Source: Candidatus Latescibacterota bacterium
Lineage (GTDB): Bacteria > Latescibacterota > UBA2968
Assembly: GCA_965198115.1 (NCBI GenBank)
Contig: OZ240241.1
Location: forward strand, 7,456,001-7,520,000
Reading direction: 5' to 3'
DNA: 64,000 bases
Shown: piece by piece, positions 17,547 through 63,635 of the stretch
Layout: each line of letters opens with the position of its first letter
How positions within the stretch are numbered: position 1 is the stretch's first letter
Notes under the pieces: model-generated
What the model saw: only the letters and a program-made list of their open reading frames with translations
Told to the model about the DNA's origin: nothing
The model's database searches: none
Made by a program: the position numbers and the translations under genes

Positions 17547-17671
17547 GCAACCTGCCCCGCCTCTTGCTGGCCTGGGGTCTCGACCGAAGCGGTACGGACC
17601 CAAAGCCGCGAGCTGGTTCTAGGGCGCTCGCTTTCCGAGTTCTCTGAGCAATCCGGGGACGCTGGTGCTCC

Positions 17672-17759
17672 CTTTGTGGTTTGTGTGTTGACACATTTAC
17701 CAAAACACGGCAATGTGTTTTAGTGGTTATTTCTTTTCTCAATCAGAAGGGTGGCGTGG
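17672..17759 (+). repeat. 88-bp inverted repeat, copy A (parA promoter and first codons)
   Basis: 87 of 88 bases identical to the reverse complement of 21282-21369. Confidence 0.95.
17688..17716 (+). promoter_or_regulatory. Sigma70-type promoter of parA, probably leaderless
   Basis: TTGACA-17 bp-CAATGT, then 6 bp to the GTG start; no Shine-Dalgarno; ACAC/GTGT motifs throughout. Confidence 0.6.
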
Positions 17760-18382
17760 GCAAAACCACACTGGCAGTGAATGTCGCCGCTGGGTTGGCC
17801 CGTAACGGGCACAATGTCCTTTTGATCGACGCCGACAAGCAAGGGTCCGCCTCTGCTTGGGCGAGCTTGCGCGAGCATACCGATTTCAAGGTGATCTCAC
17901 TCGCCCGCGAAAACATGGCGCGGGATGCGCTGAAACTGGCAGCCGACCACACCTACACCGTGATTGATGGCCCGCCACACGCTGAATCCATTGCTCGCTC
18001 GTGCATTGTGGCGTCTGACCTTGTCCTCGTGCCCATCGAACCAAGCGGCCTGTCTACTTGGGCCAGCGATCTCACCGTCCGTCAGGTTCAGGAAGCACAG
18101 GAACTCAAAATCATCAAATGTTGTTTTGTGGTTTCACGCAAAATAGGGAACACGGTTATCGGTCGCGAGATCCGCTCGATGGCTGCCGCGATGGGCATCC
18201 CGATCCTGGCAAACGAAATCGCCCAGCGAGTCGCCTATGCCGAGAGTCTGACGATGGGCAAAATGATTTTTGAATGGGCACCGGAAAGCCCTGCCGCGAG
18301 CGAGATTGAGAAGCTGACAAAGGAGATTCTAAGTGCATGGTTTCATAAACATTATTACGTATGTCCTGAACATTATTTGTAG
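17723..18382 (+). CDS. parA: ParA/ParF-type partition ATPase; native C-terminus replaced by IS630 sequence
   Basis: NQKGGVGKTT deviant Walker A, LIDAD.QGS, VIDGPP, QRVAYAES. Confidence 0.9.
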   Translation: MVISFLNQKGGVGKTTLAVNVAAGLARNGHNVLLIDADKQGSASAWASLREHTDFKVISLARENMARDALKLAADHTYTVIDGPPHAESIARSCIVASDLVLVPIEPSGLSTWASDLTVRQVQEAQELKIIKCCFVVSRKIGNTVIGREIRSMAAAMGIPILANEIAQRVAYAESLTMGKMIFEWAPESPAASEIEKLTKEILSAWFHKHYYVCPEHYL

Positions 18383-19594
18383 CTTATGTTCTCCTTCAAA
18401 AGGAGGAGAACAATGCCAAGACGTTCGCCTTATGTGGTGCTACTGTCTGAGAAGGAACGGGTCGACCTCGAGCGAATGGCTGGACAATATACGTTACCGT
18501 ATTATCAAGTGATCCGATCGAAAATCGTGCTTCTCGCCGCCGAGGGATTATCCAACAAGATTATCGCCCAACGGTTGGATGTCCCGCGTCCGATCGTAAG
18601 CAAATGGCGTAAGCGCTTTTTCGAAGAGCGTCTTTCGGGACTCGAAGATAGATCTCGTCCCGGGCGCCCGCCCGGTTTTCCCCCCTCAGGTGGTCGTTCA
18701 GATCAAGGCGCTGGCGTGTGAACTACCGAGCGAGAGCGGGATACCGCTCTCGCGGTTCAGCTGTTCCGAGATTGCCGCCGAGGCAGTGCAAAGGGGCTTC
18801 GTTGCCAAGATCAGCGGCGCCACTGTCTGGCGCTGGTTGAACGAGGACGCGATTCGTCCTTGGTATCATCGCTCCTGGATTTTCCCACGGGACCCGGACT
18901 TCCAAACCAAAGCAGGTAGAGTCCTTGATCTGTATCACCGCCAATGGCAAGGAAAGCCTTTAGGGCCGAGGGAATATGTACTTTCTGCCGACGAAAAGAC
19001 CAGTATTCAAGCACGAGCTCGCAAGCACGTTACCCTACCGCCAGCCTCGAACAGAGCGGCACGCGTTGAAACACGAATACGAGCGGAAAGGAGCCCTGGC
19101 CTATCTGGCTGCTCTCGACGTGCACAATGGTCGAATCTTCGGTCTCTGTGAGTCTTCTTCGGGTATCGAGCCCTTCAACCGGCTCCTGAGCCTGATCATG
19201 AGCCGGAAACCCTATTGCTCGGCAAAGAAAGTCTACCTCATCGTGGATAATGGCTCCTCGCACCGAGGGCAAACATGCATCGACCGTATCCAGGGGAAGT
19301 GGCCAAACATCCACCCCGTTCACCTTCCGATCCACGCAAGCTGGCTCAATCAGATCGAGATCTACTTCTCGATCCTCAAACGCAAGGCTCTGACACCTAT
19401 CGAATTTGCATCGCTCGAAGAGCTTGAGGCAAGAATCCTCGGTTTTCAGGAACGCTACGGACGTATCGCCACACCCTTCAAATGGAAGTTCACACGAACA
19501 GATCTCGCGGAGATGATCGACAAACTCAGGTTCTACGATACGCCCTTGGCAAAGTCTGCTTAGAATACGTCACCGTATTTGAGAACAGGAGTAC
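18333..19594 (+). mobile_element. IS630-family element (transposase 18413-19563)
   Basis: HTH orf plus DDE (SADEKT, DNGSSH, SWLNQIE); slippery TTTTCCCCCC near 18676 and a second frameshift near 19070; TAA on both flanks; empty site seen at about 47314-47330. Confidence 0.9.
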
Positions 19595-19600
19595 TAAGCT

Positions 19601-19918
19601 ATGAGCAAGAAATCATTTCAGAGCGTTCCGAAACCAAAAATGCTTACCGATGACGCCCTGGAGTCCTTTGAAAAAGCGGGTCCAGGCCAGGGCCCGGCCC
19701 TTGAAGAACCTCCCCGCAAGAACATCAAACAGGAGAAAACCACTGAGCCGACAAAACGGCTCAGCGTAGATGTTCCGGTCTCCGTCCATCGGCGTTTCAA
19801 GACAGCGTGTAGCGCAACCAGCCGCCAGATGGTCGCTGAGTTACGACACTTGATTGAAGCCCACATATTGGAGCTTGAAAGTGAGATCGGGAGCGTCGGG
19901 CAGGATGACCTCCGCTGA
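19601..19918 (+). CDS. ParG-like ribbon-helix-helix partition protein
   Basis: TKRLSVDVPVSVHRRFKTAC RHH pattern after a flexible N-tail; directly downstream of parA. Confidence 0.75.
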   Translation: MSKKSFQSVPKPKMLTDDALESFEKAGPGQGPALEEPPRKNIKQEKTTEPTKRLSVDVPVSVHRRFKTACSATSRQMVAELRHLIEAHILELESEIGSVGQDDLR

Positions 19919-20069
19919 TGCGGCATTGTCACGTTAGCTTGCTGCTAGTTCGTCGAAGCTCCCTTGCATCCGGTACAGCGTTGACACCTCGGCTTCCTGG
20001 AGAAGGAAAATCGACTGACTTCCGCGGTGTCACTCTCCGTCTCCACCATATGAGGGCCATGCCCACTAC

Positions 20070-21175
20070 ATGATGAAGCGTGACTGGGACCTCCTCTTCT
20101 CGGAGGACGACCTCAGGGCCGGACTCGAGAATCAGCTGAGCCAGGTCGAAGACAAAGTGCGGGCCGTCGATCCTGTGCGATTCGAAACCAGCACCGACGA
20201 CCTCCTTTCAGCCACCATTGCCTCAGAGCTCGTGTTCGCTCCAATCGAGCTGCATGAGGACCAGCTCTCCGTCTCACCTCGCGACGCCAAGGTGGATGTT
20301 TCATACGACCACGACCGCGCTTTCTTTGGCCCCGGTCCGCACTACGTGGATGGATTGGAGGTCACATACAACCTTCCCTTCTCTGGCGACGCGGATCTCT
20401 TCAAATGCAAGCCAAACCAGTACACCTACAATGCACCTCGCGCGGTCCTTCGGCCAGGCGAATTGACCTTCCCCTACGACAGTGCGAATCGTGACGTAGC
20501 AGGGACGAAGAAGTCCTTTGACGACGACCTCACAACGATCAAGGAATGGCTAGGCTGGCAGGCCAGTCAGATCGCGGAATACAACGCCTCACTCGAAGAT
20601 CGTGTACGAAGCGCGGTCATCGCTCGCCGGGCAGAACTCTCCAAGACCCAGTCGGATCTTCAGGCACTTGGCATTCCCATCAAAGGGACCGAAGGACCAG
20701 CTGCCCCCTCGTCTGAACCACCGGCCAACCCGTTGAGCGTCGAGAGACAAAAAGGAAGGAGGCAAGGCGCGAGTATGACGTGGCGCTGTCCTTCGCGGGC
20801 GAGGATCGAGAATATGTAGAGCAGGTTGCCGAGCACCTCGTCAAGCTCGATGTCACCGTGTTTTACGATCGATACGAGACTGCTGAACTATGGGGTGAAG
20901 ACCTCGCGGTCCACCTCGGGAATATTTACTCCCGCGACTCCCACTTTGTGGTCATGTTCGCGTCACGGCACTATGCAGAGAAGGCGTGGCCGAATCACGA
21001 GCGGCAGCATGCCTTGGCGAGGCACCTCAAGGGGCAGACCGGCCGGATACTCCCTGTGCGTATCGACGACTCCGAGATCCCGGGCGTCCCGTCGACAATC
21101 GGTTATCTGGACGCGCGCGCCGTATCTCCAGACAAGCTCGCTGAACTGATTCGCCAGAAGGTGGATGCGCGGTGA
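20070..21175 (+). pseudogene. N-terminal domain of unknown function fused via a -1 frameshift to a TIR domain (putative anti-phage protein)
   Basis: ORF 20070-20819 overlaps a -1 frame reading REYDVALSFAGEDREYVEQVA...VFYD...LWG...FASRHYAEKAWPNHERQ (TIR, catalytic Glu retained). Confidence 0.75.
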
Positions 21176-21281
21176 CAGCCGGCCTCCGTAGCCGGTTACG
21201 CGGTATGTCAGATAACGCCGGGCTCCCGGCACGGGCCTTCACCGGCACTCCTTTCAAAAGGGGCTTCCCAATGAGTGAGAG

Positions 21282-21369
21282 CCACGCCACCCTTCTGATT
21301 GAGAAAAGAAATAACCACTAAAACACATTACCGTGTTTTGGTAAATGTGTCAACACACAAACCACAAAG
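21282..21369 (-). repeat. 88-bp inverted repeat, copy B (second parA promoter and truncated 5' end)
   Basis: Reverse complement of 17672-17759; the single difference makes the -10 box TAATGT. Confidence 0.95.
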
Positions 21370-21487
21370 AGAACCCGACACCTGTACGAATGCGTGTGTG
21401 GCGACTGTCCGGCTGTACGTGATCGGCCCCCCGTTGTGGGCGCAGCAACTGGCGGCGAAGGGCGAACGGTGGACTCTGACCGGCGAA

Positions 21488-21628
21488 GGTTCGGCGGCGG
21501 CCCGGCGGTTCCTTGCGGGCAAGCAGTCGTTGGAGCGGGGCGGTCGGAGAGAGGGTGGGACCCGGACGACCCGACGGCGGACGATGCCGCGCGGAAGCGG
21601 TACGACCGGGCGGTCGAAACCCTGAAGC
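21488..21628 (+). repeat. Internally deleted copy of the hypothetical gene fragment at 40870-41150
   Basis: Shared CCTTGCGGGCAAGCAGTCGTTGG and GGTGGGACCCG.ACGACCCGACGGCGGACGATGCCGCGCGGAAGCGGT.CGACCGGGCGGTCGAAACCCTGAAG. Confidence 0.8.
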
Positions 21629-22745: not shown

Positions 22746-25700
22746 TCAACCCAGGACCATCGTCTGATTCTTAGACTGCGGCGGCGTATAGGTCAGCCCG
22801 AAGACGTTATCCGTCAGCCATCGCCGGAATCCCTCGTTGTCTGTGAACTGCTTGAAGAGTTGCATGTCGTCGTTGAGCACGGCAGTCATCACGCGCCTCA
22901 GGGCTTCGTCATGCTCGATCCGGGCGTTCTGCCTGTCGGAGTTCTCCCGGGCGTTGCGATAGGCGGTGTCCTCGGCAACCTTGGCCGGAATCTCCTCTGT
23001 AATGAGGCGTCGAACGCGGTCCTCATCCTCCCAGAGGATGTGTCCAAACTGATCGTTGAAGGTCTTGAGGATGTTCGAGAGCCGTTCGAGTTCGGTTTCC
23101 GCCCGGTGTCGGCCGCCGGTGGTCGGTAGCGGCTCGATCTCGGCGTCCTCGTCCGCCAGTTGGACGTGTATCGCCGCCTTCTTCTCGACCCGGTAGCTGT
23201 CCATGTCGATGGACTCGAGGATGCCTTTGGACAGATCCTCTTCCACGGGCGCGGGGAGCTTCGGCACGAGGAAGTTCAGGAAGATCGAGAGCTTCTCCCA
23301 CTCGGCGTTCGTGTACGGCAGGATCGAGGCGAGGAAGCCGTACGCGCGTACGAACGCCTTGCCCTTGCCCTTGAAGTTCACCTGCCCGTCCTCGTCGAGC
23401 TGCTCCTTGTAGACCGCGACGCAGGCATCGAGGATGGGGTCGAGCTGGTCGCGGTCGGCCCCATCCAGGTAGAGCGTCACGAGCCGGTCGACCTCCGCGT
23501 CGGCATACACCTGATAGCCGTCGAGCTCGGCCTTGAGGTCGTGCAGCTTGTTGGGATCGGTTTCCTCGCTGAGGATCGTCGTCCGGTAGTAGTCAGCGAA
23601 CGCCTCCTGGATGGTATCGGCATCGTTCATGAAGTCGAGCACGAACACGTCGTGTTTCTTCGGGTGCGCCCTGTTGAGACGCGACAGTGTCTGCACGGCC
23701 TTGATCCCGGACAAGATCTTGTCCACGTACATGGTGTGCAACAGCGGCTCGTCGTAGCCGGTCTGGAACTTGTCGGCGCAAATGAGGAACCGATACGGGT
23801 CCCGCTGGATCTCGTCGGCGATTCGCCCGGACGGGAAGCCGTTGAGGGACACCTCACTGACCTTCACCTCGCCATACTCGTGCTCGCCCGAGAAGGCGAC
23901 GATGGCCCGGTACGGGCTCTTGCGCTCCAGCAGATACTGCCGGATCGCGTGGTAATACTGGATCGCGCGCTCGATGCCGCTCGTCACCACCATCGCGCGC
24001 GCCTTGCCGCCGATCTTGTTGAGCGCCAGCACCTGTTCGTGGAAGTGGTCCACCATGATCTCGGCCTTGAGCCGGATGGCATGCTCGTGGCTCTCGACGT
24101 AGCGGCGCAGCTTCTTCCGGGCGCGCTTGGTGTCGAACTCGGGATCCCCCTCGATCTTCTTGATGAGCTTGCAGTAGCTCGCGACTGGCGTGTAGTGCCG
24201 CAGCACGTCCAGGATGAAGCCCTCCTGGATCGCCTGCTTCATGGTGTAGCTGTGGAAGGGGCGGTGCCTGGTCTGCCCTTCCGCGTCGTATGCCTCGCCG
24301 AAGATCTCCAGCGTCTTGTTCTTGGGCGTGGCAGTGAAGGCGAAGTAGCTCGCGTTCGGGAGGAGCCTCCGCACGGCCATGATGCGGTTGATCGTGTCTT
24401 CGGTGGTCTCGTCGTCCTCCCCGGCACCCACCTCGGAGAGCGCCATGCTGACCGCTGCCGAAGTCTTGCCGCCTTGGCTCGAATGCGCCTCGTCGATGAG
24501 GATGGCGAAGCGCCGGCCCCGCTGCTCGTTCCCGATCGCGTCGAGGATAAACGGGAACTTCTGCACCGTCGAGATGATGATCTTCTTGCCGCTCTCGATA
24601 AACCTGCGGAGGTCACCCGAGCGGTCGGCATGGCCAACGGTGGCCCCGACTTGGGCGAACTGCTTGATGGTGTCGCGGATCTGCTTGTCGAGGATGCGTC
24701 GGTCGGTGACCACGATGATGGAGTCGAACACCGCCGCGTCGTCCTTCCTGAGCCCGATCAACTGGTGGGCGAGCCAGGCGATGGAGTTGGACTTCCCGCT
24801 GCCGGCCGAATGCTGGATGAGATACCGTTTCCCGGCGCCGTGCCGGCGCGTGTCAGCCAAGAGCCGACGCACCACCTCGAGCTGGTGGTAGCGCGGCCAG
24901 ATCTGCTCCTTCCTCTTCTTGCCCGTCTTCTCGTCCTTGGTCTCGACGATCTGCGCATAGTTCTCCAGGATGTTGGTCAGCCCGTCGCGGGTGAGCAGGC
25001 GCGTCCAGAGGTAGTCGGTCTTGAGGCCGTCCGCGTTGGGCGGGTTCCCGGCACCGTCGTTCCAGCCCTGGTTGAAGGGTAGGAACCACGAGGTCTTACC
25101 CTTGAGGTGCGTGCAGAACCGCACTTCGTGGTCGTCCACCGCGAAGTGCGCCACGCAACGGCCAAACTCGAACAGCTTCTCGCGCGGGTCGCGATCGCGC
25201 TTGTACTGCTCCACCGCGTCCTCGACCGTCTGCTTGGTGAGGCTGTTCTTCAGCTCGAAGGTGGATACCGGCAGGCCGTTAATGAACAGGCCGAGGTCAA
25301 GTGCGCGCTGAGTCTCATCACGGCTGTAGCGGAGCTGGCGCGTGACGGAGAAGCGGTTCTGCGCGTAGCGTTCAGCGGCGGCGGGGTTGCCGGGAGACGG
25401 CGTGCCGTAGAAGAGTTCGACGTGATGCGGCCCGTCCTTGACCCCCTTGCGGAGCACGTCGATGACTCCGCGCCTGCTGATCTCGCCCTGGAGCCGGGCC
25501 AGGAACTTCCGGCGCCCTGGGCCATCATCTTCCAGGTGCAGGCCCTCGAAGGCATCCGGTTGCGTTTCGACGAGGAACGCCAGGAGTTGTGCTAAATCGA
25601 CCGTGTACTCGCGGTCGTAGCCGTTGGGCGCGCCGCAGATCCATCCGGCCCCACCCGAGGGGGAGATGGCTTCGCCTTCCAGATCTGTCTGCGACAATGT

Positions 25701-25775
25701 GGCATCGCAGGGATTGCCGGTCAGAGCGGTGCAGATCAGCCGTTCGAGGCCGCGTTCGCTGGTGTCGGTCGTCAC
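22746..25775 (-). CDS. hsdR: Type I restriction enzyme R subunit
   Basis: DLGLFINGLPVSTFELKN nuclease motif, QHSAGSGKS, IDEAHS, FTATP, TGYDEP, QTLSRLNR. Confidence 0.95.
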   Translation of the reverse strand: MTTDTSERGLERLICTALTGNPCDATLSQTDLEGEAISPSGGAGWICGAPNGYDREYTVDLAQLLAFLVETQPDAFEGLHLEDDGPGRRKFLARLQGEISRRGVIDVLRKGVKDGPHHVELFYGTPSPGNPAAAERYAQNRFSVTRQLRYSRDETQRALDLGLFINGLPVSTFELKNSLTKQTVEDAVEQYKRDRDPREKLFEFGRCVAHFAVDDHEVRFCTHLKGKTSWFLPFNQGWNDGAGNPPNADGLKTDYLWTRLLTRDGLTNILENYAQIVETKDEKTGKKRKEQIWPRYHQLEVVRRLLADTRRHGAGKRYLIQHSAGSGKSNSIAWLAHQLIGLRKDDAAVFDSIIVVTDRRILDKQIRDTIKQFAQVGATVGHADRSGDLRRFIESGKKIIISTVQKFPFILDAIGNEQRGRRFAILIDEAHSSQGGKTSAAVSMALSEVGAGEDDETTEDTINRIMAVRRLLPNASYFAFTATPKNKTLEIFGEAYDAEGQTRHRPFHSYTMKQAIQEGFILDVLRHYTPVASYCKLIKKIEGDPEFDTKRARKKLRRYVESHEHAIRLKAEIMVDHFHEQVLALNKIGGKARAMVVTSGIERAIQYYHAIRQYLLERKSPYRAIVAFSGEHEYGEVKVSEVSLNGFPSGRIADEIQRDPYRFLICADKFQTGYDEPLLHTMYVDKILSGIKAVQTLSRLNRAHPKKHDVFVLDFMNDADTIQEAFADYYRTTILSEETDPNKLHDLKAELDGYQVYADAEVDRLVTLYLDGADRDQLDPILDACVAVYKEQLDEDGQVNFKGKGKAFVRAYGFLASILPYTNAEWEKLSIFLNFLVPKLPAPVEEDLSKGILESIDMDSYRVEKKAAIHVQLADEDAEIEPLPTTGGRHRAETELERLSNILKTFNDQFGHILWEDEDRVRRLITEEIPAKVAEDTAYRNARENSDRQNARIEHDEALRRVMTAVLNDDMQLFKQFTDNEGFRRWLTDNVFGLTYTPPQSKNQTMVLG

Positions 25776-27232
25776 ACCGTAGCCTCCTCGGGGGTGGTGT
25801 CGAGGCCGTCGCGGGGCTCTTCCTCACCGTTGATGATGACTTCAGCCTCGTCGAGCGGCTCCAATTCCTCGACCTCGTCCGGTAGCTGGGCGGCTGACTC
25901 CCGAACGTCGAGCTTGCCGGTGACCACGTCTGCGATGAGGCGGGTACGGTATTCGCGGAGGAGGGAGATTTCTCGTTGAGTTGACGTGGTCGCCGTATCA
26001 AGGTCTGCGGTGGCTTGATCCAAGAAGGACACGATGGCCGCTTGCTCCTCAGACGGGGGCCAACCCAGCAAGATGTTACCGACAGTGTCTGTGTTGAGAT
26101 TAAGTTGGGTTCCAAGCTTTCCAAGCCGAGCGAAAGGAGTACCAGACGCGAAGACCCGATAGAGAAAATCGGCGTCGCCGTTGAACTGTGGGAAGTAGAC
26201 GAACCCGTCGTGGATACAGCACTTGATGCGGGTGATCATCGGTTTTCCCACCGAGCCAGCGATGCTCAGAAACAGTGCGCCTGGTTCGAGCAGCACGCTT
26301 AGCGACTGGCCGAGCACGGAGAGCCGCTGTGTGGTGCGCTCAAGATAGCGGCTGCTGGCCGTAACGTCGGCGATGCGCACCCATGCGTACTCACCATCAT
26401 CGTCAAAGTACTTCGGATCGGCAATGGGCCTGGGTGATGCCCCGCGCTTAACCAGCGACAGACTCTTCACCCGCCGAACCTCCCAATGCTCCGGCACGTC
26501 CCCCAGCCACTCCACACCGGAGGACTTGAGGCGGACGTTGGGGTCGAGGCCGCGCGTGACGGCGCGGTGGATGACGGCCTGCTTCTGCTCCTGCAGCAGC
26601 GTGATCAGCTTCTGCTTGGCACGGATGTAGCGCCGGATGCGCCGGTCGGCGTGGTCGAGGAAGCGGACGATGGCAGCTTGTTCTGGATAGGGCGGAATGC
26701 AGACCTCGAACGTTCCCAGCCTTGTCTCGGCAATCGCTGGATATGCGATACCCACTGCCTCTGCCGTAACGCGGTTTGTGAACGGATCACTCTGGCAAAA
26801 ATAGCTCGTGAACCTCGGGAACGTGCCGCGTCGCGGCGTCAGCACTGCAAAACCGGTTGACGCGACTAGATCATCACCCGTGTGTTCCGCGTGCCAGACA
26901 GCTTTCAGATAGGTCCTCACCGTCGAAACGATCGTATCGCCGGGCCTGACGACACGCCTTGCCCGAGACGGTGAGTTTCCGAATCGAATCCGTTCGGGCT
27001 TTGCGGTCAATCGGCCAGTCGCAACTGACCCGATGTCCAGGTACTCGAATGTGTACTCTGGATCAGTGTCTTCCGACAGGACGAATTCATTGACGTCCAA
27101 CCAGCTCTTGAGTCTCCGCACCTCCCACTGCGCCGGCACCTTTCCCAGCCACTGGACACCGGAGTCCTTGTAGGCCTGGTACGGCTTGAGTGCGCGTGCC
27201 GCGTCGCGGCCGAGTTCACAGGTCGAGTTCAC
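25772..27232 (-). CDS. hsdS: Type I R-M specificity subunit
   Basis: Two target-recognition domains, each opened by K.SGV.WLG.VP..WEV and closed by PP..EQAAIV.FLD. Confidence 0.92.
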   Translation of the reverse strand: MNSTCELGRDAARALKPYQAYKDSGVQWLGKVPAQWEVRRLKSWLDVNEFVLSEDTDPEYTFEYLDIGSVATGRLTAKPERIRFGNSPSRARRVVRPGDTIVSTVRTYLKAVWHAEHTGDDLVASTGFAVLTPRRGTFPRFTSYFCQSDPFTNRVTAEAVGIAYPAIAETRLGTFEVCIPPYPEQAAIVRFLDHADRRIRRYIRAKQKLITLLQEQKQAVIHRAVTRGLDPNVRLKSSGVEWLGDVPEHWEVRRVKSLSLVKRGASPRPIADPKYFDDDGEYAWVRIADVTASSRYLERTTQRLSVLGQSLSVLLEPGALFLSIAGSVGKPMITRIKCCIHDGFVYFPQFNGDADFLYRVFASGTPFARLGKLGTQLNLNTDTVGNILLGWPPSEEQAAIVSFLDQATADLDTATTSTQREISLLREYRTRLIADVVTGKLDVRESAAQLPDEVEELEPLDEAEVIINGEEEPRDGLDTTPEEATV

Positions 27233-27458
27233 GGAGAAGCTCCTCGACGGTCATTTCGTGGTGCTGGGCAACGCTCTTCAGGATGCTCGATAGCGTCTTC
27301 ACCCTGATCGGAGTGTGCAGCGGGATCACCTCATGATGTTCACCGTTGATCTGCGTCGTGATTCGCACGTGGGAACCCCGCTGTCGCACGGTGTCGTACC
27401 CCAGACGTCGAAGCGACGCTTGCAGCGTCGCGCCGCTCACGTTCCGGGGCAACTTCAT
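27216..27458 (-). CDS. hicA: HicA-family mRNA interferase toxin
   Basis: LRRLGY..VRQRGSHVR...EVIPLH...TLSSILK. Confidence 0.85.
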   Translation of the reverse strand: MKLPRNVSGATLQASLRRLGYDTVRQRGSHVRITTQINGEHHEVIPLHTPIRVKTLSSILKSVAQHHEMTVEELLRELDL

Positions 27459-27667
27459 GCCACGAGAACCTCGTCCCGCACGAAGTGCAACCGAATCAAC
27501 TTCGGTCGCGGCATGGTGTCGTCGAAGTAGCAGTCGACGGCCTCCTTGACGTTGCTGCGGATCTCCTCGACAGACTCGCCCTGGGTGTGAATGCCGTGCC
27601 CGAGCGCGCTTGCCGAATACCCGCCGTCTGCTTCGTCTTCGGTGATTTCGAAGATGATCTCAGTCAT
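27455..27667 (-). CDS. hicB: Short HicB-family antitoxin
   Basis: EIIFEITED..DGGYSA...IHTQGESVEEIRSNVKEAV; ATGA overlaps with both hsdM and hicA. Confidence 0.8.
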   Translation of the reverse strand: MTEIIFEITEDEADGGYSASALGHGIHTQGESVEEIRSNVKEAVDCYFDDTMPRPKLIRLHFVRDEVLVA

Positions 27668-30600
27668 GCAGTCGTCTCCCGCTGTTCGCCGCCGCCGAGA
27701 ATCTCGGCCAGCAGCCCTTCCGTCTCCTGCTCCAGCGCCAGAATATCCGCCCGAATCTCTGCCAGCGTCCGCATCGGCTTCGGCTTGTAGAAGTAGCGCG
27801 TAAAGCTGATCTCGTAGCCGACCTCCACACTGTCCGCGTGGTACCAGGCGTCGGCCGCGTACGGCAGGACCTCGCGGCGCAGGAACGCCTCAATGCCGCC
27901 GTCTTCCTGCAACGGGATCTGCTCGGTGTCGCGCAGGTCGGTATCCGGCTCGTACTCAACCACGCGGCACTTGCCTTTTACTGTGGATTCGACCAGACCA
28001 CGGATCGAGTCCGGCTCCATCCTGCCCGGCTTGTGGATCTTCTTGATGACGGGTTCGGCCGCCTCAGCCCGCGTGGCCAATGACGTCTGAAGCAGCTTGC
28101 TTCGCTTGGCCGTCAACTTGACGCCATGCTCGGAGATGTCCGTCTCGACGGCAGCCATGAAGCGATTGAAGTCGAGGTGAGGTCCGGCGCCTAATGCCTC
28201 GGTCACCCGGTCGACGACGTTGGCAATCGGCTCTTCCTGCGCTTCCCTGCATGCGGCGCGGAAGCGCAGGCGTTGTTCGGGAGACAGATCGACGGTCACC
28301 TTCCAATAACCGAAGGCCCGGTTCGGGAAGATCTTGGATTGCTCGGTTTCCTCAAACGCCAGGAACGTATCGCAGATGCGTTGGATGTCCTCCTCCGACA
28401 GCTCGCAGTTCTTCTTGCCGAGGTTCTTGCGCAGCGGCTCGAACCACTGCGTGGCGTCGATGAGCTGCACCTTCCCGCGTCGATGGGAGGGTTTACGGTT
28501 GGTCAGCACCCAGATGTAGGTGGCGATGCCGGTGTTGTAGAACATGTTGAGCGGGAGGGCGACGATGGCCTCCAGCCAGTCGTTCTCGATGATCCAGCGG
28601 CGGATGTTGCTCTCGCCCTGCCCGGCGTCCCCGGTGAAGAGCGAGCTGCCGTTGTGTACCTCGGCGATGCGGCTGCCGAGCGGGGTATCCTGCTTCATCT
28701 TGGAAAGCTTGTTGGCGAGGAAGAGCATCTGGCCGTCGCTGGAGCGGGTCACCAGAGAGTACTCGGGATCGCCCGCATGCTCGATCACGAAGCGCGGGTC
28801 GCGCATGTCCTTCTTGCCGCCCATACGCTCGAGATCGCTCTTCCAGTTCTTGCCGTAGGGCGGGTTGGAGAGCATGAAGTCGAACTCGCGGGACGGAAAG
28901 GCGTCGTTGGAGAGCGTCGAGTGTTCCGGCCCCCCGACGATGTTGTCGGCGGCTTCTCCCTCCCCCTTGAGGAGGAGGTCCGCCTTGGCGATGGCGTAGG
29001 TTTCGGAGTTGATCTCCTGGCCGTAGAGATGGGCGGCGACCTACTTGCCGCGCTGCCCGGCGATCTGCGTCAACGTCTCCTCGGCCACCGTCAACATGCC
29101 GCCGGTGCCGCAGGTACCGTCGTACACCAGGTAGGTCCCGGAGTCGATCCGGTCGGCGACAGGCACGAAGACCAGCTTCGCCATGAGCGTCACGGCATCG
29201 CGCGGGGTCCAGTGCTCGCCGGCTTCCTCGTTGTTTTCCTCATTGAAACGGCGGACCAGCTCCTCGAAGATCGTGCCCATCGCGTGGTTATCCAGGCCGG
29301 GTTGCTTGATCGACCCGTCGCCATGGAGGACCGGGTGAGGACTTAGGGTTTGCCACGAAATAAGTGCTGCACTTTTCAAGGTAATGATCTTACGCTCGGA
29401 GTGTGGACGTCGAAACTCTCCGAACGAAGTATGAAGCCTTGGCTCCGGTGCTGACGGAACGCACGCGTCGTCTGTGGGCCGCCACGGAAGCCGAAGCGTT
29501 GGGTCACGGTGGGATCGCGATTGTGGCTCTGGCGACAGGAATGTCCAGAGAGCGGATCTTTCGTGGCATTCAGGAGTTGAGGTCGGACGAACCTTTGGAC
29601 CCGGCTCGCATCCGGCGTCCAGGCGGCGGTCGTAAGCGGAAGGCCGACACGGACCCGACGCTGTGGCAGGACCTGAATGATCTGGTCGAGCCAACGACTG
29701 CGGGGTCGCCTGACGACAATCCTCTGAGATGGACATCGAAGAGCACTCGCAAACTGGCCGCCGAGTTGCAAGCGATGGGGCATTCGGTGAGCCCCAGGAT
29801 CGTTGCCAATCTCCTGCACGAACACGATTACACGCTGCAGGCGAATCGGAAGACAAGGGAGGGATCTGCACACCCGGATCGGGACGCTCAGTTCGTTTAC
29901 CTCGATGATCGGATTAGCCAGCAGCAGCAGCAGGGCCTTCCCGTTATCTCGGTGGACACCAAGAAGAAAGAGTTGATCGGCGACTTCAAGAATCCTGGCC
30001 GAGAATGGCGACCCAAGGGAGACCCGGAGCGTGTGAAGGTACACGATTTCATAGTGCCTGCTCAGGGCAAGGCGATCCCTTATGGAGTGTATGATCTGAG
30101 CCGTGATGAAGGCTGGGTAAGTGTCGGTATCGATCACGACACGGCCAGCTTCGCCGTGAATGCGATCCGAAGTTGGTGGAAGAACATGGGACGGCCCGCC
30201 TACGGCACTTCGACGCATCTGCTAATCACGGCGGACGCAGGCGGCAGCAACGGCGCCAAGACGCGGCTGTGGAAGTGGGAGCTGCAGCGCTTTGCGAATC
30301 GCACTGGCCTGACGATCACCGTATGCCACTACCCTCCTGGCACTAGTAAGTGGAACAAGATCGAACATCGCCTGTTCTCCTTCATCGCTATGAACTGGCG
30401 AGGCAAGCCCCTGGTCAGCCTGGCTGCAACCGTGAATCTCATTGCCGGAACGACCACTCAAGCCGGTCTCCGAGTACGCTCCGAGATCGACAAGCGACCC
30501 TACCCTAACGGGGTCAAGGTGACCGATGAACAGATGACCCAAATCGATCTCACTCCGCACGATTTCCACGGCGACTGGAACTACACGATCCGGCCAATGG

Positions 30601-31114
30601 CTCAACATTGAGATCGACCGTTTATTTATTCGCGAACCCTAAGGTTCACGTCCGGCGAGAGGAACTTCTCGATCAGCGTGCCGAGGGCGTCGACCTTGGA
30701 CAGGCGGGGAATCTGGTTCCGAAACTCGAACTTCTCCAGGATGTCCTGGACGTTCGGCGAGAAGCCGTCGAGATAGGCCTCGAAGTTGGCCTTGAGCTGC
30801 TGTTGGCTGGCACGGGCCTTGAGATCGCGTAGCGTGAACTTCGAGGTATTGTAGAACGCCTGGCCGGCGGCCTGACGCAGTGCCTGGTCCTGGTGGATGA
30901 TCTTCGCCTTGTCGAGCGAGGTCTTCATCTCCAGCACCGCCAGCGTGCTCGGCTCAAGCACTGCGTCGAGCCTCCGCAATACTGTCATCGGCAGGATCAC
31001 GTCGCGGTACTTGCCACGGACGTAGAGGTCGCGCAGCACGTCATCCGCGACGCCCCAGATGAAGTTGGCGATCCAGTTGAATTGAGGGTGGTCCACGGGC
31101 CTCCTATTTCTCAA
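27664..31114 (-). pseudogene. hsdM: Type I R-M methyltransferase subunit, split by ISAzo13 and a nonsense codon
   Basis: ANFIWGVADDVLRD...DVNL, then IS, then SPHPV...YDGTCGTGGML; in-frame TAG at 29043-29041; NPPY motif. Confidence 0.92.
29346..30639 (+). mobile_element. ISAzo13-family element, copy 1 (transposase 29403-30611)
   Basis: IRs GGGTTTGCCACGAAATAA and GGGTTCGCGAATAAATAA; ISVDTKKKELIG, ADAGGSN, PPGTSKWNKIEHRLF. Confidence 0.93.
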
Positions 31115-58326: not shown

Positions 58327-58445
58327 TCGGTAGCTGGGGAGGTTGAGCTCCAGGATCACGCAGTGATGCACGAGACGGTCGATGGCCGCGGCCGTGGTCA
58401 TCTGGTCCTTGAAGATGTGCTCCCACTTGGAGAAGGGCAGGTTGT
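58327..58445 (-). pseudogene. IS21 IstB C-terminal fragment
   Basis: Manual translation NLPFSKWEHIFKDQMTTAAAIDRLVHHCVILELNLPSYR. Confidence 0.8.
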
Positions 58446-60912
58446 GTCCTTACTTCGGGGAGATCGTCGGGCACGATCCCTACCCGTGGCAGCGGTGCTT
58501 GTATAGAACGTTTGTCGAAGGGAGTGTCCCCAAAGCCTTGGACATCCCGACCGGCCTGGGCAAGACCCTCTGCGTACTTCTCTTCCTGCTCGCACGGGTC
58601 CGGAATACTGCACTCCCCACGCGGGTCATTTACATCGTCGACAGACGCGCCATCGTAGATCAGACGGCGACCGCAATCCGGACATGGATTGAACGCATTG
58701 CCGAGTTGCCAGAACTCGCGGGTGTGCTCGACGCGAGTTCGGCATTTTCGTCCGATCTTCCCGTCCAGCTCGGCATTCTGCGGGGCGGCTTAGCGGACGA
58801 TGGGGAGTGGCGAATCGATCCGGCCAGACCGGCGGTCGTGGTCGGCACTGTCGATATGATCGGTTCCCTCCTGATGTTCTCAGGTTACGGTGACGGACGA
58901 TCACGCCGGCCGATGCACGCGGGACTTCTTTGCCACGACAGCCTCGTCATGCTGGACGAAGCCCATTTGTCACCGGCGATGGGGGTACTCATCCACACCA
59001 TCAATCGGCTCCAAGGCCACCGGAAGTTCCAGACCATGACGCTGTCGGCGACGAGCACCGATATCGATACCGAGAGCGTGTTTCAACTCCTTGTCGAGGA
59101 CAAGGCCAATCCTTCAGTTCGTAGTCGCCTTCACTCGGTCAAGAGACAGAGTCTCCATCAGGTCGAGAAAACCACTGATCGGATCGGTCGCATTTGCGAG
59201 GTGGCCACCGCTCATGAATCTGGCTCCGTCGCGGTGTTTACCCGAAGTGTCGCGGATGCCGAGAAGATTGCCGTGAAGCTGATCAGTATGCTCGACGATG
59301 GCTCCGAGCGCGTCGCACTACTGACGGGGACGCTCCGCGGAAAAGAACGCGCCGAGCTGGCAAATGGAACGGTCTGGCGGAGCTTCCTTCCGAATCGGGA
59401 CCGTGACGCGAGTACAGCCTCCGTCTACCTCGTGATGACCTCGGCCGGCGAAGTCGGAGTCGATCTGGATGCCGATCACGGTGTCATGGATCTCAGCACT
59501 CTCGATTCGATGATTCAGCGCGTTGGCCGAGTGAACCGGATGGGCCTGACTGAGGCGGACGTTGCGGTCGTCTTCACGGGGCAAGAGGCGCGGGAGTCAC
59601 CGCAAGCGCCGAAGATGCACACCCGAAGACTTGCTGCGGCTCGTACGAAAACACTGGAAGAACTTCGGCGGCTTCCCGACCTTTCTCCAGCGACTCTGGG
59701 AGGCCTCGACAAGCAAGTCCTTGAAGAGTGCTTCGTGCCGCCTTCCCGGCCCGCGCGACTGCACTCGGAAGTGGTCGAGGCATTCGCGGCGACGTCCGCG
59801 ACACTGCAGCTCCCCCATGTCTCGATCTATCTGCGCGGAGTGTCGGATCAGCCCGACCCGCCAGAGAGTTTCCTCCTCTGGCGCTGGGACGTGCCGCATC
59901 TAGTCCGGCTCGGCAGCGATGCGGCTGCGCAGGCGATCGCTTTCTTCCGGCCGAGCGCCGATGAGGTCGCTCGTGTCCCGGCACGCCTTGCGAGGGACTT
60001 GGTCCTGTCCGCGCTTGAACGTCAAGAGGGGAGGGGCTTCCTCTGATCGTGGTCGAACCGGGAGGCGATGTCTGTGCTATCTTCTTGAAGCGCAAGGACG
60101 AACTCTCTTCGCTCAACTACGCGACTGTTGTTCTGCCAACTGCCGCCGGAGGTCTGGAACCCTCTGGCCTCCCCTCGAATTCTGCGAGGGACGAGGTCTC
60201 CGACGTAGGCGACAGTGATGCTCGGGTTCGTTATGTGAACGCCAGTAGTGCTGGGGATGTCGACGGCGAGGAGAGTGAACAGGCACTTCCAGCTTGGTTG
60301 GATCAGGCCACCGAGCTTCGGGTTCCGTTGCATGGCGTCAATGAAGACGACGTCGAGGAACGTTTTCTGGTCTACGCACTCCGCCGTTCCGATCCAGCAC
60401 TCCAAACCACTGAGAGCGATCTGGCCTGGCTCGGGGCCTCTATCCAGACCGTGGACGAGCACTGCGCTCTTGTCGGCGACGCCGCTCGACGGATCGGCGA
60501 GGCGCTCTCACTCCCCGATCATGAAATTGATGCATTGGAAGCAGCCGGACGCTGGCATGACCGCGGAAAGGCGAGGAGGGTGTGGCAACGGGCTGCCGGA
60601 GTTCCCGCCAATGGTCCCCTTCTGGTGAAACCGAGGAAGGGGTATTTCCGTCCGGCGTTGCTCGGCGGTTATCGCCATGAGTTCGGCTCTCTCGCCGAAG
60701 CGGCGCGGAAGATCCCGAACAAATCGCCCAATCGCGAGCTCGTCTTGCACCTGATCGCCTCGCACCACGGCTGGGCACGGCCAGGCTTTCCCCAGTCTCG
60801 ACAGTGGGACCCGGATGTTCCCTCCGCGTTGAACCGACGGCTCGCCATCGAGGCAGCGAACCGCTTTGCAAGCCTTCAGGCCGAGTATGGGCCGTGGCGA
60901 CTCGCATGGTTA
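58446..60912 (+). pseudogene. cas3: Type I-G (I-U) CRISPR helicase/nuclease Cas3 with C-terminal HD domain; start lost, frameshifted, 3'-truncated
   Basis: PYPWQ, DIPTGLGKT, YIVDRRAIVDQ, LRGG, GTVDMIGS, DEAHL, QRVGRVNR; frameshift near 60044; HDRGK, GYRHEFGSL, LIASHHG; cut by ISAzo13 after WRLAWL. Confidence 0.88.
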
Positions 60913-63635
60913 GGGTTCGCGAATAAATAAGGCTATATCCGGATCTCTCAACGAGCTGAAGTGGGTGAAGGTGCCGTGGTTCCTGGCATGGGGGCGCGGT
61001 TAGCGTGTGCGGAACCTCTTCGGAATCTGCTCAGGGATGTTTAGGTCTCCGACGGTAAGGAAGATCATATCGTTGAATGCGTCGAGTGTGCGGAATCCGC
61101 TGGCTCGGTTCTTGACGATTTGGACGATTCGGTTGAGGCCTTCGGCGATGGCGTTGGTAAGACGCGTGTTCACGAATGCGAGGACGCCGAAGAAGTGCTG
61201 TCGCAGGGTCCTGACGAACTTTCGCAGGGGTTCAAGTCGACTTCTGAGTGCGGACGTCGTCCAGCATTTCAGGAAGCGTTCGGCAGCCCAGGGCGCTTTG
61301 TATTCCCATAACTGCTCGAACTCGTCCTTGAGTCTCCAGGCTCTATAGATTCGGTAGTTCGCCTTCTCCAGTGCTTTGAGTGTCCGAGTATCCCCTCTGG
61401 AGCGTGTCGCTGAGTGCCGGTAGAGGAGCCATCGGAGGCCCTTCATGGCTTTGCGCTCATCCGGGGCAGCTTTACGCCACTGGTCCTTACGGACCTCGTC
61501 AACGGCGGCATTGAGAGCCTTGACGATGTGAAAGCGATCGAGGACCAGCTTGGCATTCGGACAGTGTTCCTGGATGGCTCCGATGTAAGCTTCGCTCATG
61601 TCGCAGCAGGCCCACTCGATCTTGGATCTCTGGTAGGGACTGAGAGCCTCTGTGAAGAACCGATCGATCGTTTTACGCGCCCTGCCGCGGCCAACCCACA
61701 CCACGCAGGAGCGGTCCAGATCGTAAACGAGCGTGGCGTACCTGTGACGCTTGGCGTAGGAGATCTCGTCGATCCCGATGGTTTTGAGCCCTCGGATACG
61801 ATGACCTTCACGAAGCCGCGTGATGGATCGGTGACGGAGATCCGACAGCGTCGAGGCAGAGATGCGCAGTAACTCGGACGCCGCCTTCTGCGTCATGGTC
61901 TGGCAGTAGCGCAGCATGGCATACTCGAAGCGATACGTCACCTGAGAGAACCGCTCCGCCCACGGAATCTCCTCGACCACACGACCGTGGGTAGGACACC
62001 GAATCTCCCGAGGATGGTAGAGAAGCCAGACCCTCCACCCGCACACCGGAATGTCACGCCACCGACGCGGATGGGGCATTGTGCGGACGATTTTACCTCG
62101 ACGGCCGCACTCCGGACAACAACAACCATTCTTATGTGGCTTTACGGCGATGACGAAACAGCTTCTCCCCTCAAACCACCAGCTGACAACACGGAACCCC
62201 TTGAATCTCAGCAGTTTCGATAGTAATCTGCTCCCGGTCATAGGTCGCACCCCCTTCGCTTTGATTGTCCTACACACACAACCAAGCGTAGGGAACGATC
62301 TATGACCTTATCATTCTATAGTTTCACCGTTGAGAAACCCGGATAGAGCCATAAATAAACGGTCGATCTCAATGTTGAGCCATTGGCCGGATCGTGTAGT
62401 TCCAGTCGCCGTGGAAATCGTGCGGAGTGAGATCGATTTGGGTCATCTGTTCATCGGTCACCTTGACCCCGTTAGGGTAGGGTCGCTTGTCGATCTCGGA
62501 GCGTACTCGGAGACCGGCTTGAGTGGTCGTTCCGGCAATGAGATTCACGGTTGCAGCCAGGCTGACCAGGGGCTTGCCTCGCCCAGTTCATAGCGATGAA
62601 GGAGAACAGGCGATGTTCGATCTTGTTCCACTTACTAGTGCCAGGAGGGTAGTGGCATACGGTGATCGTCAGGCCAGTGCGATTCGCAAAGCGCTGCAGC
62701 TCCCACTTCCACAGCCGCGTCTTGGCGCCGTTGCTGCCGCCTGCGTCCGCCGTGATTAGCAGATGCGTCGAAGTGCCGTAGGCGGGCCGTCCCATGTTCT
62801 TCCACCAACTTCGGATCGCATTCACGGCGAAGCTGGCCGTGTCGTGATCGATACCGACACTTACCCAGCCTTCATCACGGCTCAGATCATACACTCCATA
62901 AGGGATCGCCTTGCCCTGAGCAGGCACTATGAAATCGTGTACCTTCACACGCTCCGGGTCTCCCTTGGGTCGCCATTCTCGGCCAGGATTCTTGAAGTCG
63001 CCGATCAACTCTTTCTTCTTGGTGTCCACCGAGATAACGGGAAGGCCCTGCTGCTGCTGCTGGCTAATCCGATCATCGAGGTAAACGAACTGAGCGTCCC
63101 GATCCGGGTGTGCAGATCCCTCCCTTGTCTTCCGATTCGCCTGCAGCGTGTAATCGTGTTCGTGCAGGAGATTGGCAACGATCCTGGGGCTCACCGAATG
63201 CCCCATCGCTTGCAACTCGGCGGCCAGTTTGCGAGTGCTCTTCGATGTCCATCTCAGAGGATTGTCGTCAGGCGACCCCGCAGTCGTTGGCTCGACCAGA
63301 TCATTCAGGTCCTGCCACAGCGTCGGGTCCGTGTCGGCCTTCCGCTTACGACCGCCGCCTGGACGCCGGATGCGAGCCGGGTCCAAAGGTTCGTCCGACC
63401 TCAACTCCTGAATGCCACGAAAGATCCGCTCTCTGGACATTCCTGTCGCCAGAGCCACAATCGCGATCCCACCGTGACCCAACGCTTCGGCTTCCGTGGC
63501 GGCCCACAGACGACGCGTGCGTTCCGTCAGCACCGGAGCCAAGGCTTCATACTTCGTTCGGAGAGTTTCGACGTCCACACTCCGAGCGTAAGATCATTAC
63601 CTTGAAAAGTGCAGCACTTATTTCGTGGCAAACCC
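60913..63635 (-). mobile_element. ISAzo13 copy 2, with a 1-bp insertion in the transposase and ISL3 nested in its right IR
   Basis: Reverse complement of 29346-30639; extra base near 62583; flanks are unrelated genes (cas3 and gdh). Confidence 0.92.
60931..62350 (-). mobile_element. ISL3 copy 2 (transposase 61000-62277)
   Basis: Same 1420-bp length and IRs as copy 1, with several substitutions; 8-bp TSD ATAAATAA. Confidence 0.95.

Follow-up and report, generated by a model that had tools for sequence, protein, structure and literature searches.

PDC-S54 (model PDLC05036) is a PADLOC candidate consisting of a single gene, in which an N-terminal domain appears from the sequence to be joined to a PD-(D/E)XK-type nuclease, a term that reflects the present reading of a KTD...ECK motif and is not a database label. 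The candidate is described as derived from genes embedded in restriction-modification (R-M), BREX and DISARM loci (10.1101/2024.01.29.577857), and the main text of that source does not use the name 'S54'. Of 32 TIR systems tested in E. coli, only 12 are reported to be protective, and in the presence of a phage protein TIR-II, TIR-V, TIR-VI, TIR-IX and TIR-Retron reportedly cause death or arrest (PMC11350192). In AbTir, E208 is described as essential, W204 and K202 as contacting the substrate, and the position of W204 as affecting cyclic products; its NADase activity needs, or rises with, self-association, in which an N-terminal coiled coil is involved (10.1101/2022.05.07.491051). A study of prokaryotic Schlafen fusions counts, by its own account, 558 unannotated groups (PMC13056530).

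The gene considered here lies in a 64,000-nucleotide stretch of DNA from a Candidatus Latescibacterota bacterium, referred to as the window. It is the TIR-armed form of the catalogued candidate PDC-S54, broken in this copy. A literature search returned no paper naming 'PDC-S54' and no title or abstract opening that describes a fusion of the N-domain with a TIR domain; a recent description under another name may exist. The preliminary description had presented the gene as a candidate undescribed system, which holds in part: the N-domain is already catalogued in the PDC-S54 candidate, whereas PADLOC 2.0, Pfam and NCBIfam contain no separate model for the TIR fusion.

The fusion gene and its one-base break

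As read in the window, the upstream ORF (20070-20819, + strand) encodes 249 aa, comprising an ordered domain of about 205 aa, a Pro/Ala linker and an unrelated tail; the domain, with the motifs quoted earlier for it, and the linker are thus present as first described. The N-terminal domain (residues 1-205; 20070..20684, + strand) corresponds to the front half of PADLOC PDC-S54. In the 368-aa fusion, the linker (20685..20764, + strand) is rich in Pro/Ala and then in Lys/Arg, and model confidence is lower at about residues 201-220. A complete TIR domain in the -1 frame was recovered as TIR_2 (20765..21175, + strand, including the stop codon; PF13676, E 7e-18), closest to AbTir/TcpB. The TGA previously seen in the TIR frame is located at 20714..20716 (+ strand) and sets the upstream limit of the break. 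The putative catalytic glutamate, placed earlier in WPNHER, belongs to a K-A-W-P-N-H-E motif (20981..21001, + strand) that by alignment is equivalent to AbTir K202/W204/E208, and the Glu of WPNHE (20999-21001) aligns with that of WTNYE in AbTir. As written, the window product would stop at 249 aa without a TIR domain.

The natural product is a single in-frame chain of N-domain, linker and TIR. Residues 1-206 as query returned 73 homologues, 56 of which carry TIR_2, most of these being 363-379 aa long; the best is 91% identical and has 368 aa. The intact in-frame fusion occurs at 37 distinct genome or metagenome loci (38 rows, L120 repeating L017), in Gemmatimonadota, Acidobacteriota, Planctomycetota, Bacillales and others. 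When the window gene (1106 nt) is aligned with the intact gene of locus L003 (1107 nt), 41 substitutions and a single indel are found. The indel is a C missing after 20728, where the window has CCC (20729..20731, + strand) and intact copies have CCCC. The extra C is present in all eight public runs compared, out of 20 listed with the gene, the eight being assembled contigs and not raw reads; a 94%-identical genome copy has it too, and this copy and all eight runs encode one 368-aa protein. The window gene almost certainly descends from a 368-aa gene by the loss of one base, in the DNA or in its assembly, and many other bacteria carry that gene intact.

The preliminary description had taken the -1 frameshift as a biological join at CAA-AAA-G, which would imply programmed ribosomal frameshifting that yields an N-domain-only protein and the fusion at a set ratio. 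The heptamer itself is there (CAAAAAG, 20748..20754, + strand), between the TGA at 20714 and the start of the TIR domain; one further record, P0015, has its break in roughly the same position and into the same frame, and the family includes N-domain-only proteins. The missing base, however, maps to 20729-20731, 17 bases upstream of the heptamer, and CAAAAAG is found in just one of 33 intact linkers and not in L003. Slippery sites of the -1 type follow the rule X-XXY-YYZ; in the upstream frame the motif reads CAA-AAA-GGA and the heptamer A-CAA-AAA, which does not fit the rule. Nine broken relatives (L012, L018, L022, L026, L029, L032, L035, L141 and L172) break at scattered positions, in or near the linker only in L029 and L032, and no out-of-frame junction is conserved at one slippery site across homologues, 37 distinct loci being in frame. 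The single indel against L003, the C in eight of eight runs, the rarity of CAAAAAG and the scattered breaks together make programmed recoding extremely improbable; the candidate site was rejected on the position of the break and the count among intact linkers, and the heptamer is read as a by-product of Lys/Arg codons. As a separate observation, the unrelated homologues L026, L035 and L172 share a frameshift at a G run in the Leu-Trp-Gly codons of the TIR domain (around TIR position 44-52), which reflects either an error hot spot or recurrent inactivation.

The deletion in the window copy is somewhat better explained as a real, recent pseudogene, and an assembly error retains a considerable, though less than even, chance. 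The genes rpoB, rpoC, secA and valS are unbroken in the genome (4 of 4 checked), so the assembly is not generally frameshifted. These four intact essential genes, the IS-rich genome and the damaged hsdM nearby favour real decay. Near-full copies of four IS elements number 133, 74, 66 and 17 in the window's genome (G000). Decay is likewise favoured by the close clade, in which 15 of 31 clusters are partial, several of them on long contigs; the same count indicates that the gene is often lost or mis-assembled. Pointing to an error instead, the lesion is a slip in a short homopolymer, in an assembly made up of a single contig. The six runs that cover position 20054 show another one-base difference there, and the gene is otherwise undamaged, its TIR part differing from L003 by mostly silent codon changes (9 synonymous, 4 non-synonymous). 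The P0015 break at about the same place fits a pseudogene or an error alike, and so could the 96 minority gap positions found in 349 kb of copies of the four IS elements. The window's own flanks are absent from every run listed with the gene.

Two further observations concern the same material. The IS load is heavy, with 290 near-full copies of four elements in a genome of 8.4 Mb, compared with a size of 5.6 Mb for one congeneric genome listed. Expression of the gene was considered on the basis of two RNA-labelled runs and set aside, as related copies are present there as contigs, which is no demonstration of transcription.

The N-terminal domain as a portable module

The N-domain model is confident (pLDDT 96, pTM 0.86): besides three short helices it has a beta part of four strands and, at its C-terminal end, one continuous helix of 57 residues (143-199). 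No match to the N-domain was obtained in Pfam, NCBIfam, PDB sequences, Foldseek PDB or BFVD. In VIA-align, the best Z score was 7.6 (77 aligned residues, rmsd 3.7), which lies in the range of common helical arrangements, and the ESM Atlas yielded only unnamed clusters of 170-204 aa. Profiles of SAVED, STING, cNMP-binding and APAZ domains gave no match in the N-domain (Pfam, PADLOC), and no fold match to nucleotide-sensor domains appeared either, an absence from fold lists that does not exclude kinship. The modelled domain thus matches no solved or viral fold, which does not by itself prove that the fold is new.

N-domain residues 4-211 match positions 3-209 of the 410-position PDLC05036 profile (E 9e-44), and the intact homologue P0002 matches the same model with E 3e-43. 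The nuclease half of PDC-S54, the rest of the profile, is missing from the TIR form: the match stops at profile position 223 and the C-terminal half is TIR_2. Homologues P0070-P0073 match the whole model from end to end (E 7e-139 to 3e-166 and 5e-119), in agreement with the preliminary description, which placed this domain elsewhere on a PD-(D/E)XK-like nuclease.

A profile built from nine N-domains was searched against 1.84 billion representatives, clustered at 50% identity. With E values up to 0.001 accepted, 4,478 clusters were recovered, and with a limit of 1e-10 there were 2,887; nuclease, TIR, AlbA_2 and stand-alone forms are among them. In the best 150 of the 4,478 clusters, a set biased towards the query, the tails are nuclease-like in 44, TIR in 27 (23 by BLAST and four by eye and profile), Schlafen AlbA_2 in three and a domain of unknown type in one; 39 proteins end within 15 residues of the N-domain, and in the remaining 36 the tail is short or could not be assigned, with an apparent frameshift in many. 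On an N-domain tree of 44 rows, which omits stand-alone and truncated rows and subsamples the nuclease and main-clade TIR rows, the TIR label needs eight changes, at least four of them forced by well-supported branches, and the AlbA_2 label needs two. The TIR rows come together as a single group in 0% of the 200 bootstrap trees, in a bootstrap that had not fully settled. The N-domain has gained TIR repeatedly and is a portable module, found also with a PD-(D/E)XK-type nuclease, with other TIR clades and with Schlafen AlbA_2; no fusion to a cyclase was seen. The effector swap on a shared N-domain that had been foreseen for this gene is therefore borne out by these tails and label changes, and N-domain/TIR fusions are common among its homologues. 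The repeated joining to a DNase, a Schlafen nuclease and TIR domains is most simply understood if the N-domain is the sensor and its partners are effectors, and a role as sensor or oligomeriser is likely.

Within the phylum of the window, the N-domain was found in 10 of 168 genomes, and the other nine carry no TIR in the fetched loci; in the phylum of the L017 genome it was found in 8 of 401, by a search that scored few candidates per genome. Such a patchy distribution is expected of a mobile gene. Longer fusions of 558-2000 aa were not returned by the search, which is weak evidence, as a TIR form of 597 aa (P0110) does exist; this protein has three parts, the N-domain, a TIR domain and a part of unknown type. 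In P0130, the N-domain is fused to a helical domain of about 170 aa without a Pfam match. Viral contigs gave eight matches, all to TIR only and none with the N-domain, and phage records gave two weak N-domain matches.

On two plasmids, a stand-alone N-domain gene of 201 aa abuts a gene of about 1035 aa with caspase and DEAD/H-helicase parts (L205:5001-8713, NZ_CP133114; L206:5001-8718, NZ_CP126308). The flanks of this pair hold TIR-TIR-caspase and 4TM effector genes on one plasmid and Upx and TIR genes on the other, and stand-alone N-domain and caspase-helicase are a possible two-gene defence system. Of 17 plasmid records that carry the caspase-helicase, most have no detected N-domain. A fixed partnership with the stand-alone N-domain was rejected: the two genes were seen together on two related plasmids, and two other caspase-helicase loci have no such gene annotated upstream.

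Genomic setting and defence context

The gene is part of a mobile segment (20022..21228, + strand) shared with other samples, in which the matches have loose ends at 20022 and 21228 and other DNA lies beyond both ends. Upstream in the window (17681..19918, + strand) are a parA gene (PF13614/PF01656) and, following it, a weak ParG-like ORF (E 0.073); between the two, at the parA 3' end, is a pair of IS-type transposase ORFs (18386-19563, named from sequence). Just after the fusion gene, at 21282..21372 (- strand), 91 nt of the parA 5' end (17669-17759) recur in inverted orientation (98%). The gene had been described as cargo behind a plasmid-type par operon; parA and a weak ParG-like ORF are indeed upstream, but the segment has other flanks in the eight runs and in L003, those of L003 resembling those of the runs, and the par operon is thus a recent landing place. 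A stretch of about 35 nt just upstream of the gene (19989-20027) is found, with varied flanks, in many other contigs of all eight runs, and may be a dispersed repeat or a cassette end.

Further along the window, starting 1.6 kb beyond the gene, is a type I R-M locus (22746..31114, - strand), which the preliminary description does not mention. Its hsdR and hsdS are whole, and its hsdM is split, by an IS at 29403-30611 and by a stop codon in frame at 29041-29043. Between hsdS and hsdM (27216-27667) are small toxin-antitoxin-like ORFs, presumably HicAB-like. A type I-G Cas3 (58382-60927, + strand) is split into two ORFs in different frames. Elsewhere in the genome, an 87-nt piece of the same N-domain gene (L002; G000:C1:7740418-7740504) sits in a region that shares an ORF with window positions 21299-21625. 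Distinct from the true rpoBC are two ORFs of 1116 and 1055 aa (G000:C1:1427585-1430107 and 3369365-3370930), each of which matches RpoB in part and RpoC in part and is possibly a single-chain RNA polymerase of phage or element type.

The distribution of the gene is patchy, it often stands by itself, and the motifs around several relatives suggest integron cassettes with a single gene. An RYYYAAC motif within 60 nt of the stop codon was found at 7 of 33 intact loci, compared with 66 of 1,850 random windows (3.6%) and 13 of 117 TIR-only loci, a count in which a TAA stop raises the chance rate. Thirteen loci picked for inspection showed attC-like ends or hairpins in L022, L126, L127, L128 and L131, and GTTRRRY 37-44 nt before the start codon in L009, L126 and L128. 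L126 has both cassette ends and a 98-nt hairpin, and L022 a 109-nt hairpin. The cassette layout of a single ORF, an upstream GTTRRRY and an attC after the stop is thus found in relatives, in a test that operates at the motif level without an attC covariance model. In the window copy, inspection by eye of about 130 nt after 21175 revealed no RYYYAAC ... GTTRRRY arrangement, the motif script found no attC-like end in the near-identical L003, and no integron integrase was identified beside the cassette-like relatives. Integron cassettes also carry non-defence cargo. Two preprints, as far as their main texts go, report that integron cassettes encode anti-phage systems, and the term 'TIR' is absent from both main texts (Kieffer et al., Darracq et al.).

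Defence-like genes were detected in the fetched flanks at 11 of 34 relatives' loci (L003, L008, L010, L015, L017, L018, L032, L126, L130, L135 and L146), a count made without a background control and leaving out a generic kinase match at L035. Neighbours were scanned with Pfam (140 of 183 ORFs) and with PADLOC (65 locus ORFs), and four ORFs from L003 were scanned in addition. The other 23 loci have no defence-like neighbour among the scanned ORFs. No partner gene recurs across the 34 loci in the scanned ORFs, except for short pAgo and TIR-APAZ genes in two Pyrinomonadaceae. In these (L015:5142-9107 and L032:4571-9139), the fusion gene stands directly behind an operon of short pAgo and TIR-APAZ type and a 137-aa ORF, and in L015 a second TIR gene follows immediately; both pAgo operons have a TIR-APAZ-type gene of their own.

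In the window, no match to ThsA, CD-NTase or Argonaute was found among 69 of 90 ORFs of at least 150 aa, and profile searches of the whole genome recovered no SIR2_2 (type I ThsA), Piwi or SMODS domain, which upholds the earlier statement that these partners are missing. The features that would define known multi-gene systems are accordingly absent at the scopes searched: no Piwi in the genome and no APAZ or PNTD match to either ORF for SPARTA; no ThsA in the 69 window ORFs or the scanned neighbours for Thoeris; and no CD-NTase or PycC in the 69 window ORFs for CBASS or Pycsar. With no recurring partner and with cassette-like relatives, the gene appears to work alone, as the single-gene view had it.

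Proposed mechanism and comparison with known systems

The TIR domain keeps the catalytic motif of AbTir. Its sequence aligns over about 97 residues with 7uwg, 4lzp and 8g83 (E 2e-7 to 5e-7), the nearest solved sequences being AbTir, TcpB and PdTIR. The full-length model of the intact homologue P0002 (pLDDT 83) has fold matches to TIR only, with PdTIR 3h16 at Z 11.6 (rmsd 3.0, 124 aligned residues), and KxWxxxE (K305, W307, E311) is invariant in 53 of 53 homologues.

The intact gene probably has an anti-phage function, as far as can be read from its domains and relatives. Points against it are that just 12 of 32 TIR systems protected when tested in E. coli, that 23 of 34 relatives' loci lack a defence-like neighbour among the scanned ORFs, and that integron cassettes can carry non-defence cargo. 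The main reading, with a probability of roughly 0.55 for the whole chain of steps, is that it encodes a one-protein sensor-effector that would kill the infected cell by destroying NAD+. The N-domain would recognise a phage product or a state of infection, and its 57-residue helix may bring several chains together, by analogy with the coiled coil of AbTir. TIR active sites would form across neighbouring chains, the clustered domains would cleave NAD+ to ADPR or a cADPR isomer, and the resulting fall in NAD+ would lead to abortive infection.

Other readings share parts of this scheme. The TIR domain could instead be a signal synthase of the Thoeris kind, with the N-domain detecting infection and the TIR product, a cADPR isomer or a different ADPR conjugate, switching on an effector whose gene lies elsewhere. 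The invariant Trp equivalent to AbTir W204, a position that affects cyclic products, the weak ThsB matches (PADLOC, E 1e-4) and the place of the gene just behind short pAgo and TIR-APAZ genes in L015 and L032 speak for it; yet apart from that pair no partner recurs across 34 loci, the genome has no SIR2_2 domain, single-gene cassettes occur among the relatives, and the nuclease and Schlafen swap partners are themselves effectors. Signalling is distinctly unlikely, and a solitary, cassette-like gene favours direct action.

A non-phage toxin module with the same sensor-effector layout, triggered by stress or by plasmids (addiction, anti-plasmid action or a DNA-damage response), is unlikely as well, but deserves somewhat more weight. 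Plasmids and sites next to mobile elements are among the places where the gene occurs, defence neighbours are missing from many TIR-fusion loci, and the window copy lies inside a par-bearing element. This is countered by the lack of any recurring antitoxin-like partner, by the original identification of the family inside defence loci, and by two plasmids on which stand-alone N-domain genes are surrounded by genes of Thoeris-like, CBASS-effector and Upx type. TcpB-type proteins of pathogens dampen animal TLR signalling, and a similar host-directed role in sponge symbionts would agree with TcpB being among the closest solved relatives and with near-identical copies in Ca. Palauibacter poriticola and sponge-metagenome runs. 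Such a role is nevertheless quite improbable. For many of the genomes and metagenomes that have this fusion (Acidobacteriota, Planctomycetota, Bacillales and others), nothing in the titles suggests an animal host; the domains with which the TIR is swapped are nucleases, and no secretion signal is seen by eye.

The frameshift is a lesion of little importance, and it is the N-domain family that counts. Repeated fusion to three known types of immune effector marks the domain as a likely sensor of an undescribed kind, and recasts the PDC-S54 candidate, so far a nuclease of defence loci, as a family of modular receptors. A bolder proposal stands at even odds: the 205-aa domain would be a general phage sensor of new fold, present in thousands of lineages with at least three effector chemistries (DNase, TIR NADase acquired several times and Schlafen RNase), possibly with the caspase-helicase as a separate protein, and the TIR fusion would be a so far undescribed immune receptor, encoded by one gene, which depletes NAD+ and spreads in the form of an integron cassette. 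If this is true, the TIR fusion offers an easy readout for what the whole PDC-S54 family detects. The TIR form is the handiest member, with NAD+ loss and a single catalytic Glu as an on/off readout for phage triggers.

Compared with known systems, the window family has in common with Thoeris, the TIR effectors of CBASS and Pycsar, and SPARTA a TIR domain with a catalytic Glu, but the partners of these systems (the SIR2 protein ThsA, the SMODS cyclase and Piwi) are absent from the window's genome. AbTir, TcpB/BtpA and PdTIR (7uwg, 8g83, 4lzp and 3h16) are the closest solved TIR proteins; the equivalents of K202/W204/E208 and G174 are kept, and a long helix precedes the TIR domain in both groups. 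The likeness is limited to the TIR domain, as the helix of the window family, unlike the coiled coil of those proteins, belongs to a folded 205-aa alpha/beta domain that is shared with nucleases.

TIR-II, TIR-V, TIR-VI, TIR-IX and TIR-Retron of E. coli are one-gene TIR defences, as is proposed for the window family, but are short TIR-only, TIR-TPR and TIR-RT proteins, which sets them apart from the N-domain fusion as far as their description goes (PMC11350192). Prokaryotic Schlafen fusions, as that study presents them, combine an effector with diverse phage-sensing domains, and the N-domain is likewise found with AlbA_2 in three proteins; their characterised sensor is a C-terminal Ig-like domain, in contrast to the N-terminal domain of the window family (PMC13056530). 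The nearest likeness of all is to PDC-S54 (PDLC05036), which has the same N-domain of about 205 aa and the same single-gene layout of linker and C-terminal effector, its PD-(D/E)XK-type nuclease being replaced by TIR_2 in the window family.
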